A stretch of DNA of 64,000 bases, taken from Octopus vulgaris. Lineage: Eukaryota. Below are positions 35,150 to 60,050 of the stretch, piece by piece. The stretch lies in contig OX597840.1 in the NCBI GenBank assembly GCA_951406725.2, positions 18,972,001-19,036,000 of the forward strand, written 5' to 3'. Under the pieces are notes generated by a model. It was not told the origin of the DNA. It saw only the letters and a program-made list of their open reading frames with translations, and made no database searches. The position numbers and the translations under genes are program-made. Each line of letters opens with the position of its first letter. Position 1 is the stretch's first letter.

Positions 35150-35246
<97 letters not shown>

Positions 35247-35314
35247 GAAAAATACAAACTGGGACAAGAACGTAAAACATTTAGAAGACGATACAAAAAA
35301 CACGGATGGGACAT

Positions 35315-35438
35315 TCGAAGCCTTCAATCTTCAGTCAAGAACCGGATCATCCTAGCAATTTCGGCTGATTAATCTTGAGATCGCTCCGATCCGGCCAGCC
35401 CCAAGGAAAATCTAAGCTACGAGCATTAGATTTCTTGG
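35315..35438 (-). ncRNA. Candidate non-circularly permuted (pseudoknotted) hammerhead ribozyme, copy 1
   Basis: Minus strand: hairpin, GGCTGG CCGGATC gg AGCGAT C TCAAGA ttaa TCAGCC GAA ATTGCT aggat GATCCGG t TCTTGA CTGAAGA; all four helices pair. Confidence 0.7.
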
Positions 35439-35570
35439 AAAAAGGATCGAATGTATACGAAACAGGGGCAGAAAAACACGATGTCACACGAATATAAAAT
35501 ACAAAAAACAATAATGTACATATATATCATATGTATATATATATACACGCATATATGTATATACCTATAT

Positions 35571-44972: not shown

Positions 44973-45115
44973 GCAAACTGGGACAAGAACGGAAAACATC
45001 CAAATAGACGATACAAAAAACTCGAAAAAATTCGAAGCCTTTAATCTTCAATCAAGAACCGGATCATGTTTTTTGTATCGTCTATTTGGATGTTTTGCGT
45101 TCTTGTCCCATTTTG

Positions 45116-48113: not shown

Positions 48114-48531
48114 TAAGGCGACGAGCTGACAGAATCGTTAGCACGTCTGGTGAAATGCTTAGCAGTATTTCGTCTGCCATTACGTACTGAGTTCAAATTC
48201 CGCCAAGGTCGACTTTGCCTTTCATCCTTTCGGGGTCGATAAATTAAGTACCAGTTACGCACTGGGGTCAATATAATCAACTTAATCCGTCTGTCTGTCC
48301 TTGTTTGTACCCTCTGTGTTTAGCCCCTTGTGGGCAGTAAAGAAATTGGTATTTCGTCCGCCGTTACGTTCTGAGTTCAAATTCCGCCGAGGTCGACTTT
48401 GCCTTTCATCCTTTCGGGGTCGATAAATTAAGTACCAGTTACGCACTGGGGTCGATGTAATCGATTTATTTCGTTTGTCTGTCCTTGTTTGTACCCTCTG
48501 TGTTTAGCCCCTTGTGGGCAGTAAAGAAATT
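48114..48531 (+). mobile_element. SINE family B with a tandem duplication of its body
   Basis: Two near-identical units of about 180 bp; GGTATTCTT on both flanks as a probable TSD. Confidence 0.8.
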
Positions 48532-49078
48532 GGTATTCTTTCAGTTTCCTTCTACCAAATCCACTCACAGGGCTTTAGTCGCCCCGGAGTCCAAGGTACC
48601 GCACAGTGGGACTGAACACGAAACCATATTGAGAAGCATGCCACGCCTATCTAATATGTGTATTAAGGCGGCGAGCTGACAGAATCGTTAGGACTTCGGA
48701 CAAAATACTGCGAAACATTTCTTCCGACATAACGTACATTTGTTCTGAGTCCACATTCGCTACGAAATCAAATTTGCCATTCATCATTTCAAAGTCAATT
48801 TAACACGTACTACTGGAAGACTGGATACTGTGTATTCGACTTACCCGCTTCCTCTCAAAAGTGGTGGCCATGTGCTAATATTTGGGACTATTATATTACA
48901 AATTATATATATATACATACATGCATACACACATACACACACACATACCCATATATATACTATATTCATTCCATATACATATATATATGCATGTATACAT
49001 GTGTGTATATATTTAAATATATATATATAGATTAATAAGAAATATATATATATGTATATGTAAATTAATATCAAGAGC

Positions 49079-50369: not shown

Positions 50370-50523
50370 GGGATAGTTAGGTGAAACAAAAAAGGGACAA
50401 CAAAATATCCAGGCAGACGATAGAAGGAAAACAAGGACAGGTCAGTCGGAGTTTTCTATCCTCAATCGAGTTCCAGATTATCTTTGCAATTTTGGCTGGT
50501 TATACTCAAGATTGTTCCAATCT
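50370..50523 (-). mobile_element. 5'-truncated, decayed copy of the permuted-hammerhead family
   Basis: Minus strand AGATTGGAACAATC TTGAGT ATAA CCAGCC AAAA TTGC AAAGAT AATCTGG A ACTCGA TTGAGGA, closely similar to 58937-59001. Confidence 0.75.
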
Positions 50524-50551
50524 GTCTCTCTGTCTGTTTGGTTATCCGTCA

Positions 50552-58440: not shown

Positions 58441-58520
<80 letters not shown>

Positions 58521-58890
58521 AGAGTGCGCGCGGGCGTGTAGGTCTGGGGTTGTAGCTCACAACCTTTCACAATCGGTGTTGGTGCCTTTACGACTCCATA
58601 ACATAGCAGTTTGGCAAAGGAGAAGTACTTGAAAAAGAAATACGTAATGGGGGTATATTCGACCGTCTAAAACCATTTAAGGTGGTGCTCCAGCATGGCC
58701 GCAGTCAAATGACTGAAACAGGCAAGTGATAAAGACATATATATGATAAAAGATAAAAGATATATATATATATATATATATAATTCGTCCTTAGTCGAAA
58801 GACACCTGTTGTTATGTCCTATTATTTGTATTTGTGTAACATTCTCTGTTTTTTTCTCCCCTTGTTTTCGTATACGTTCGCTGCTTTTTT

Positions 58891-59014
58891 CCAAGGGATC
58901 TAATGCTCTTAGGTTAGTTTTTCCTTGGGGCTAGCCAGATTGGAGCAATCTCGAGTATAACCAGCTGAAATTGCAAAGATAATCTGGAACTCGACTGAGG
59001 ATAGAAAACTCCAA
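58891..59014 (+). ncRNA. Candidate non-circularly permuted (pseudoknotted) hammerhead ribozyme, copy 2
   Basis: Hairpin, then GGCTAG CCAGATT gga GCAAT C TCGAGT ataa CCAGCT GAA ATTGC aaagat AATCTGG a ACTCGA CTGAGGA; compensatory changes relative to the 35.3-kb copy. Confidence 0.7.
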
Positions 59015-59113
59015 ATGACTCGTCCTTGTTTTCTTTCTATCGTCTATCTGAATGTTTTATTGTCCCTTTTTTATATCACCTGTCTGGATGTTTTGCGTTT
59101 TTGTCCCATTTTG

Positions 59114-59175
<62 letters not shown>

Positions 59176-59178
<3 letters not shown>

Positions 59179-59319
59179 GCAGGAGTGGGTCTGTGGTAAG
59201 CAGCTTGGTTACCAACCACAAGGTCTTGGGTTCAGTCCCACTGCGTAGAACCTTGAGTAAGCCTCGGGCCGACTAAAGTATTGTAATTGGATTTGGTAGA
59301 TGAAATTGAAAGAAGCCCG

Positions 59320-59355
<36 letters not shown>

Positions 59356-59366
59356 GTATCTATATG

Positions 59367-59411
<45 letters not shown>

Positions 59412-60050
59412 GTGTGTATATATGTTTGTGCGTCTGTATTTGTTTCTTCAATATTACTTGATAACCGATGCTGGTGTGTTTACGTCCCCGTAACTTAGCA
59501 GTTCGGCAAAAGAAATCGATAGAATAAGTACTAGGCTTACAAAGAATAAGTCCTGGGGTCGATTTGCTCGACTAAAGGCAGTGCTATAGCATGACCACAG
59601 TCAAATGACTGAAACAAAGAAAAAAAGAATGATAAATATAGGCGCAGGAGTGGCTGTGTGGTAAGTAGCTTGCTTACCATCCACATGGTTCCGGGTTCAG
59701 TCCCATTGCGTGGCACCTTGGGCAAGTGTCTTCTACTATACCCTCGGGCCGATCAAAGCTTTGTGAGTGGATTTGGTAGACGGAAACTGAAAGAAGCCCG
59801 CCGTATATATGTATATATATATATATATGCGGGTGTGTGTTTGTGTGTCTGTGTTTGTTCCCCCAACATCGCTTGACAACCGATGTTGGTGTGTTTACGT
59901 CCCCGTAAGTTAGCAGTTCGGCAAAAGAGACCGATAGAATAAGTACTAGGCTTACAAAAAATAAGCCCTGGGGTCGATTTGCTCGACTAAAGGCGGTGCT
60001 CCAGCATGGCCGCATTCAAATGACTGAAACAAGTAAAAGAGTAAAAGAGT
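59176..60050 (+). mobile_element. Two tandem SINE family A copies
   Basis: About 59176-59630 (diverged) and 59641-60050 (near consensus). Confidence 0.85.

Follow-up and report, generated by a model that had tools for sequence, protein, structure and literature searches.

A putative self-cleaving hammerhead of rewired topology in octopus repeats and Naiad-type Penelope-like elements

Repeat copies in the window and their families

The DNA analysed here, termed the window, is a 64-kb stretch of the Octopus vulgaris genome (2.8 Gb, microsatellite-rich), to whose plus strand all positions refer. At 58780..59118 (+; ends approximate) it carries a 5'-truncated, non-coding copy of a repeat family designated F1, which represents the 3' part of the repeat unit and has (TA)n on both sides. 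This copy is part of a dispersed repeat with at least 3465 first-look candidates, among which 40 scored ones are 93-100% identical; first-look copy numbers are minimum values and, as four different queries gave much the same figure, may have reached a ceiling. Copies end in common at (TA)n about 120-170 nt past the core of the candidate ribozyme described below, are variably truncated at the 5' side, and in several cases have an inverted partner. Further copies lie on the minus strand of the window: a copy of a young second family, F2, at 35241..35516, with an intact predicted ribozyme at about 35318-35446 (CUGAAGA at 35334-35328, C17 at 35379); a truncated and decayed F1 copy at 50428..50526, which begins inside helix b; and a short F2 fragment at 45030..45071, identified by sequence comparison, which runs from b' to f'. 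The best 40 copies of F2 are 98-100% identical. Seven families with different stem letters share the same core and helix layout, F6 and F7 being represented by one copy each so far, and intermediates between F1 and F2 occur at L134:6373-6519 and at L200, the latter with a further variant of stem f. SINE-like repeats stand beside the element at 48165-48537, 58520-58750 and 59178-59600, one of them as a 184-nt tandem pair, and the window holds 171 tandem-repeat rows.

Units of F1 and F2 are about 800-830 nt long and non-coding, with a longest ATG-started open reading frame of 93 aa, and a search of the genome for an autonomous parent found no reverse transcriptase (RT) joined to either family. 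Eight long-ORF matches were considered as the parent and rejected, being C-terminal-endonuclease or other Penelope-like elements (PLEs) or a repeat, and not Naiads; F1/F4-like copies near these matches are separate insertions only. [quoted passage not shown] Both F1 and F2 share with Naiads the same ribozyme, (TA)n flanks, and tandem and inverted copies; Naiads are described as having (TA)n targets, 5' truncation, partial tandems and inverted copies (Craig et al., 2021; PMC8557442), and F1 and F2 differ from them as repeats of about 830 nt that encode no protein. F2 is young, although cephalopod Naiads have been described as long inactive (Craig et al., 2021; PMC8557442). When F1 and F2 are set against the non-LTR retrozymes, a tandem array of non-coding units, each with its own hammerhead, is present in F2, where eight ribozyme copies are spaced 655-832 nt apart; the type I hammerhead is not found in the window element. 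In the part covered, bioRxiv 10.64898/2026.07.22.740005 has type I models only. On the minus strand of L123, a remnant of an ordinary minimal type I hammerhead belonging to another repeat was seen by eye some 400 nt beyond the end of the array.

Strand order, four-way junction and covariation

A preliminary description of the window had drawn a hammerhead core with scrambled strand order at this place. Its motifs all lie where it put them (a at 58929, b at 58935, d at 58945, C58950, e at 58951, a' at 58961, GAAA at 58967, d' at 58971, b' at 58981, e' at 58989, CTGAGGA at 58995, GGAG at 58942 and CTCC at 59009), and the pairings a/a' (five of six pairs in the window copy), b/b', d/d' and e/e' are real, as is the 5' hairpin at 58891-58928. 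The description had overlooked a stem, here called f/f', in which 58884-58890 pairs with 59002-59008 and closes the whole structure. The parts on the plus strand are thus as follows. The 5' strand of stem f (58884..58890) is preceded by an outer extension (58875..58880, pairing with 59012-59017), which is weakened in the window copy and present in the minimum free energy (MFE) fold of intact copies; it abuts hairpin P0 (58891..58928; pair probability 0.97), the 3' end of which runs straight into G10.1 at 58929, the first base of strand a, the 5' strand of stem II (58929..58934). Strand b (58935..58942) belongs to the helix bridging stems I and II, the helix 'I' of Eckert et al. (2023), and strand d (58945..58950) to stem III, with U16.1 at 58949 and C17 at 58950, so that the predicted cut falls between 58950 and 58951. 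Strand e (58951..58956) would form both stem I and the start of the 3' cleavage product, and is followed by a' (58961..58966), the 3' strand of stem II as judged from sequence and family comparison, by the core bases G12-A13-A14-A15.1 with stem III strand d' (58967..58974; motif match and alignment), by b' (58980..58987; F1+F2 alignment), by stem I strand e' with the CUGAGGA core C3-A9 (58989..59001; motif match and alignment), and directly after A9 by f' (59002..59008; alignments). With a slash for the predicted cut, the order is 5'-f-P0-a-b-d-UH/e-a'-GAAA-d'-b'-e'-CUGANGA-f'-3', and the hammerhead in this order, with block C opened between A9 and G10.1, is referred to as the split form.

Since the bases after A9 pair with those just before P0, and P0 ends at G10.1, a four-way junction of f, P0, stem II and the core is created between A9 and G10.1. 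Across all 18 representatives A9 and f' are separated by 0-2 nt, f and P0 by 0-2 nt, and P0 and 10.1 by 0-1 nt, the scan behind these values having allowed up to 2, 3 and 1 nt, respectively. The pair G10.1-C11.1 occurs in all 18 chosen representatives and was not demanded by the general scan; pairing as such was demanded by the descriptors, so the high pairing rate in these 18 is not independent evidence. The linker between stems I and II is 2-6 nt long. Intact copies, such as locus L010 and the F2 copy, have as their MFE fold the nested skeleton of f, P0, b and stem III, and some decayed or weaker copies fold otherwise. The plain MFE fold of the window copy is unremarkable (z -0.86) and yields the 5' hairpin with the nested helices b and III. 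This copy has several defects, namely a G10.1-U11.1 wobble (position 11.1 is C in F2 and in 18/18 family representatives), an A-C mismatch in stem II at A58933 (G in 25/29 F1 copies) and a weak stem f that misfolds in the MFE; judged from its sequence, it is partly decayed and may be slow or dead as a ribozyme.

The CUGANGA, GAAA and NUH core with A15.1-U16.1 is present, and is intact in 23 of 29 F1 copies; stems I, II and III adjoin it and covary. Covariation was assessed on plain MAFFT alignments that were not fitted to structure. In the alignment of F1 and F2 (11 rows), 6 of 50 pairs are changed on both sides, two each in b (2/8), stem I (2/6) and f (2/7), and neither stem II nor stem III covaries from one family to the other; six compensated pairs were reached by 66 of 500 shuffles, the values for cells and for score by none. 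In the alignment of F4-F7 (10 rows), 13 of 25 pairs are changed on both sides, with compensation at 3/5 pairs in stem II, 3/6 in stem I and 3/5 in stem III and the remainder in P0 and f, and no slid register exceeds 2; helix b, which is shifted out of register by one column in that alignment, was omitted from this test. On these alignments, compensatory changes are thus seen in each of the two pseudoknot helices. The fifth pairing that the preliminary description had drawn, GGAG with CTCC, fared differently: F1 and F2 are compatible with it, yet none of its four pairs is changed on both sides, it competes with stem III and with the extension of stem f, and no equivalent was seen by eye in family F3, so that this helix lacks support.

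A compact descriptor scores the F1 copy of the window at 38 and the F2 copy at 40, and found 13 sites at 32 or above and 5 at 34 or above in 192 Mb of block-wise dinucleotide shuffles. Applied to 40 blindly sampled segments of 10 kb it returned two real sites and one borderline site, and further families appeared in retrieved loci. It replaced a loose descriptor, which was dropped for producing false matches. Rfam models at the gathering threshold gave no match within the window and none in 20 of 20 carrier loci, in keeping with the earlier expectation of a multiply pseudoknotted hammerhead overlooked by type I-III models; they likewise gave none in 20 loci without CUGANGA.

The block order of the split form excludes membership in types I, II and III (CGS, GSC and SCG), no fold of which was found for the window copy. 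The order NUH, GAAA, CUGANGA had been thought undescribed, and this was an error, since Eckert et al. (2023; PMC10085705), who divided the hammerhead into blocks S, G and C and validated the types SGC and CSG, had published it as SGC. The earlier assignment of stems I, II, III and helix b, and the statement that A9 is not joined to 10.1, have held; the preliminary description did not recognise the four-way junction that interrupts block C, because stem f was overlooked. Like the split form, SGC (HRIMA-1) has the order S, G, C, a short linker between stems I and II, a helix bridging these stems (b/b', which covaries here) and the same core; it differs in that stem II and the bridging strand follow CUGANGA in an intact block C, whereas in the split form both precede block S, no stem II strand stands directly after CUGANGA, and a four-way junction with f and P0 lies at A9-G10.1 (PMC10085705). 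CSG has the same cyclic strand order as the split form, but with block C intact and the chain opened between d' and b', where the split form opens block C itself (PMC10085705). The split form is thus a circular permutation of SGC, opened inside the block that Eckert et al. assumed to be inseparable from its stem II strand, an assumption built into their search patterns (PMC10085705), and on comparison of the sequences SGC, CSG and the split form appear to be one cyclic strand order opened at different places. SGC was reported from metatranscriptomes only and CSG from two metagenomic sequences without a host; Eckert et al. (2023; PMC10085705) detected neither type in the genome of any known organism.

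Other systems offer partial likenesses. The minimal type I hammerheads of PLEs (Cervera and de la Pena, 2014; PMC4209133) and the non-LTR retrozymes share with the split form the place in the pLTR, the sense strand, tandem and inverted copies, and non-autonomous tandem derivatives; in them the blocks run C, G, S around a three-way junction and the palindromic stem III is very short, whereas the split form combines full stems with two pseudoknots and a four-way junction. A pseudoknot-containing hammerhead in which long-range pairing replaces helix II likewise indicates that the stem II region can be rewired, but has a pistol-like connectivity, a stem-loop 'helix IV' and a minor-groove triplex and, in the passages covered, neither SGC order nor a four-way junction (PMC11300833). 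Hammerhead variants with additional helices are cited in PMC13725137 with reference to PMC4509812. Within the literature covered, which included few subscription papers and part of the supplement of Eckert et al., no report was found of a hammerhead with helices between A9 and G10.1, nor of permuted hammerheads in Naiads. It is probable, if not proven, that the split form is absent from print; what appears to be new in it is the breaking of block C by a four-way junction, the order S, G, C itself having been published.

Occurrence in Naiad-type elements

Naiads have been reported without canonical hammerheads, with only 'HHR_core' or 'HHR_half_core' noted (PMC8557442). Family F3 matches by eye the 3' ends of Naiad_Obim and Naiad_Ovul, and a short motif of it occurs 566 times in this octopus genome as against 4 times for a reversed control. 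In 7 of 15 loci the F3 ribozyme is preceded, at a distance of 860-1330 nt and in sense orientation, by the C-terminus of a PLE RT. No homologs were recovered with the 78-aa RT tail as query, Pfam named no family on the RT fragments, and viral contigs held no relatives. The F3 RT C-terminal fragments led to full-length proteins with an N-terminal GIY-YIG domain, CxC and DKA; in the query proteins PF01541 falls within residues 26-131 in three of four, and CxC and DKA are present in the consensus. Among the published Naiad consensus passages covered (CTGATGA places 1-58 of 62, and for other cores places 4-12 of 43, 25 and 23), the split form was recognised by eye in ten, namely Naiad_Bfor (f not visible, stem I of 2 bp), three Acropora elements, Naiad_Obim, Naiad_Ovul and four others, and type CSG in six, including three Nippostrongylus (nematode) elements (PMC8557442).

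The same layout recurs in metagenomic sequences. An alignment of Naiad-type proteins gave 80 metagenomic loci, assigned to this class by alignment as a set, and 62 of them have at least 200 nt downstream. CUGANGA is found downstream on the sense strand in 24/62 and is absent in 38/62; the split form is found there in 15/62, on the antisense strand in none, and at none of 47 CUGANGA cores inside the ORFs, while 53 of 78,000 core-fixed shuffles passed the same test. G10.1-C11.1 is present in 12 of the 15; the other three, L272, L277 and L280, belong to one family, have U-A and low scores, and are doubtful members. Eleven of the 15 loci were taken as representatives, leaving out these three and L210, a near-twin of L212. 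Other forms at the metagenomic loci are CSG in L236 and L259 and a weak SGC in one, with no convincing type I-III fold. The CSG cores of L236 and L259 stand 838 and 482 nt after the protein match, in the 3' UTR, and CSG also occurs at the contig end of L237; such Naiad-type elements may be the source of the host-less metagenomic CSG ribozymes of Eckert et al. In three loci without CUGANGA the same 3' UTR slot holds twister-P5-like motifs (L270:1855-1913, L207:3076-3135 and L248:1940-1998; E 0.006-0.08, below gathering), with a similar one by eye in L206, which suggests that the slot needs a self-cleaving RNA. A common pseudoknot-like 3' UTR motif without Rfam match, at approximately L247:2095-2180, L246:2560-2640 and L283:2435-2515, is a candidate for an unknown or pistol-like ribozyme, and a second common structured 3' UTR motif, also without Rfam match, is present at about L222:2520-2670 and L226:1350-1500. 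At L219:4300-4454 the first half of a split ribozyme (P0, a, S block and GAAA) runs out into (TA)n short of CUGANGA.

Insertion junctions, rival readings and a proposed model

The 5' joins of (TA)n to the element were counted by hand as distinct places in TA-flanked copies among the first 100 matches listed. For F1 and F2, in the span from 0 to -19 and among the matches listed, 15 of 27 joins lie exactly at nt 1.1, 10 are scattered over 19 upstream positions and 2 are ambiguous, where a uniform distribution would give 1.35 per position. In the span from +11 to -19 (n=42 among the matches listed), 7 lie at the site, 33 at +2 to +10 and 2 upstream; for F4, the letters of which are unrelated, the corresponding figures among the matches listed are 5 at the site, 24 at +2 to +9 and 2 upstream (n=31). 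Minus-strand totals per 30-nt window are 407 downstream and 83 upstream, a rough comparison since the anchors differ. The hot spot at +5 to +10 falls in the TA-like e-a' linker and is partly attributable to microhomology; the spike at nt 1.1 stands at a C/U step with one base of microhomology, and a better AT/AAT site 2-5 nt upstream received 2 of 27. An origin of the short copies by new insertions into old ones was rejected, as 7/7 checked copies stand alone, with no upstream half within 1.5 kb upstream. The spike and the drop just upstream of it would fit reverse transcription running off a cleaved RNA, and the preference of short copies for this start is indirect evidence for a cut in vivo. 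At L083 and L084, F3 copies 602 nt apart both begin at the predicted cleavage site after (TA)n, an observation confounded by TA before the site. A fall in depth near 35380 over the F2 copy, seen in four contig sets guessed to be RNA, was set aside, as contigs can show neither ends nor expression.

These observations have to be weighed against readings other than a single self-cleaving molecule. The same core could be assembled from two molecules or tandem units as a domain-swapped dimer, or only when chaperoned by the PLE protein, since short linkers require helix b to double back beside the axis of stems II and III: in F1 the b-d and d'-b' linkers are only 2 and 5 nt, Eckert et al. note that the distance is not readily reconciled with the crystal structure (PMC10085705), other PLE hammerheads are described as acting as dimers or needing protein, and tandem arrays exist. 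However, co-transcriptional cleavage was seen for SGC and CSG constructs that are connected in the same way (PMC10085705), the spacing from 10.1 to 16.1 is 20-25 nt in 16 of 18 representatives, as for one compact fold, and the palindromic stem III loop is absent; this reading is accordingly unlikely, while retaining some weight. A conserved, hammerhead-descended structure without catalysis, such as a protein-binding or priming signal at which RT stalls and TA microhomology produce the pile-up, would suit the position of the largest pile-up in the TA-like linker and the finding that hammerhead cleavage is dispensable for the insertion of another PLE in vitro (PMC11167929). Against it, all catalytic positions, NUH and G10.1-C11.1 are retained across unrelated stems, the nt 1.1 spike outweighs the better upstream site, RT should stall at the structure's 3' edge, and the short copies checked are stand-alone, so that a purely structural role seems quite improbable.

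It may further be asked whether the window copy could be read as an ordinary SGC with a 2-bp stem II right after A9, strands a, P0 and f being incidental. Such a stem can be drawn, but it scores 13.8 where the split form scores 38.3, the CUGANGA(U)G needed by the patterns of Eckert et al. is in neither window copy (F1 or F2), and a/a', f/f' and P0 covary in the F4-F7 alignment, which leaves this reading very little room. That the arrangement arose by chance within a repeat, or as a by-product of protein coding on either strand, might draw on the non-significant MFE z-score and on the false matches from the loose descriptor; the low shuffle rates in the 192 Mb and metagenomic comparisons, the recurrence in unrelated sequences and the shortness of the ORFs in F1 and F2 units contradict it, and with the F4-F7 covariation and the metagenomic shuffle comparison it is refuted, its probability being practically nil.

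The preferred reading, which we consider highly probable from the sequence comparisons, is a self-cleaving hammerhead of rewired topology at the 3' end (pLTR) of Naiad-type PLEs and of their non-autonomous tandem derivatives, F1 and F2. The ribozyme family is real and conserved, and it is probably active in vivo. Sequence, covariation, placement and the junction pile-up are observed; from them we infer catalysis and a role in transposition. In hammerhead chemistry G12 acts as the base and the 2'-OH of G8 as the acid, and the cut is made 3' of H17. The model proposes that the nested helices f, P0, b and III would form a skeleton on which stems I and II, as two pseudoknots, assemble a normal core, the transcript entering and leaving through the four-way junction between A9 and G10.1. 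Coaxial stacking of stem II with the core and of f with P0 would make A9-f' and P0-G10.1 the crossing strands, an arrangement that resembles the junction of the hairpin ribozyme. Validated SGC ribozymes have the same a-b, b'-e', e-a' and d'-b' connections, and the validated CSG has the same b-d connection. PLE hammerheads carry an extra base between positions 9 and 10.1 (PMC4209133), and that backbone thus tolerates insertion. Cutting after C17 would divide tandem read-through transcripts and release unit-length RNAs, as proposed for PLE hammerheads (PMC4209133). (TA)n-primed reverse transcription near the 3' end may then run off the cut and leave short copies that begin at the cleavage site or just after it, whereas uncut or re-ligated RNA would give full-length and tandem copies; F1 and F2 would be mobilised in trans. 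For comparison, the hammerhead of a Poseidon-type PLE is protein-dependent, dispensable in vitro and not seen in RNA-seq ends (PMC11167929).

For ribozyme searches and design, the split form breaks the rule behind the six-permutation hammerhead scheme, that block C cannot be interrupted, and it is missed by descriptor and covariance-model searches alike, a lesson for both. With its room for two helices at A9-G10.1, the core offers a new handle for the design of ribozyme switches, and the F2 copy at 35.3 kb is a better test substrate than the F1 copy of the window. The finding moves non-circular ribozyme permutations from anonymous metatranscriptomes to animal genomes, with thousands of copies. 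On the available sequences, it also offers an answer to the seeming lack of hammerheads in Naiads, as the split form would explain the reports that these elements have no canonical ones. A broader proposal, to which we give even weight for and against, is that Naiads are the natural home of odd-order hammerheads, in which SGC, CSG and the split form permute one pseudoknotted ring; that the commonest animal form has a perfect four-way junction at A9-G10.1, possibly as a folding aid or as an on/off switch through alternative coaxial stacking; and that the cut in vivo sets the 5' ends of insertions, a genomic readout of PLE ribozyme function. As insertion 5' ends appear to record the cut, the question of what the ribozyme does for PLEs becomes testable.
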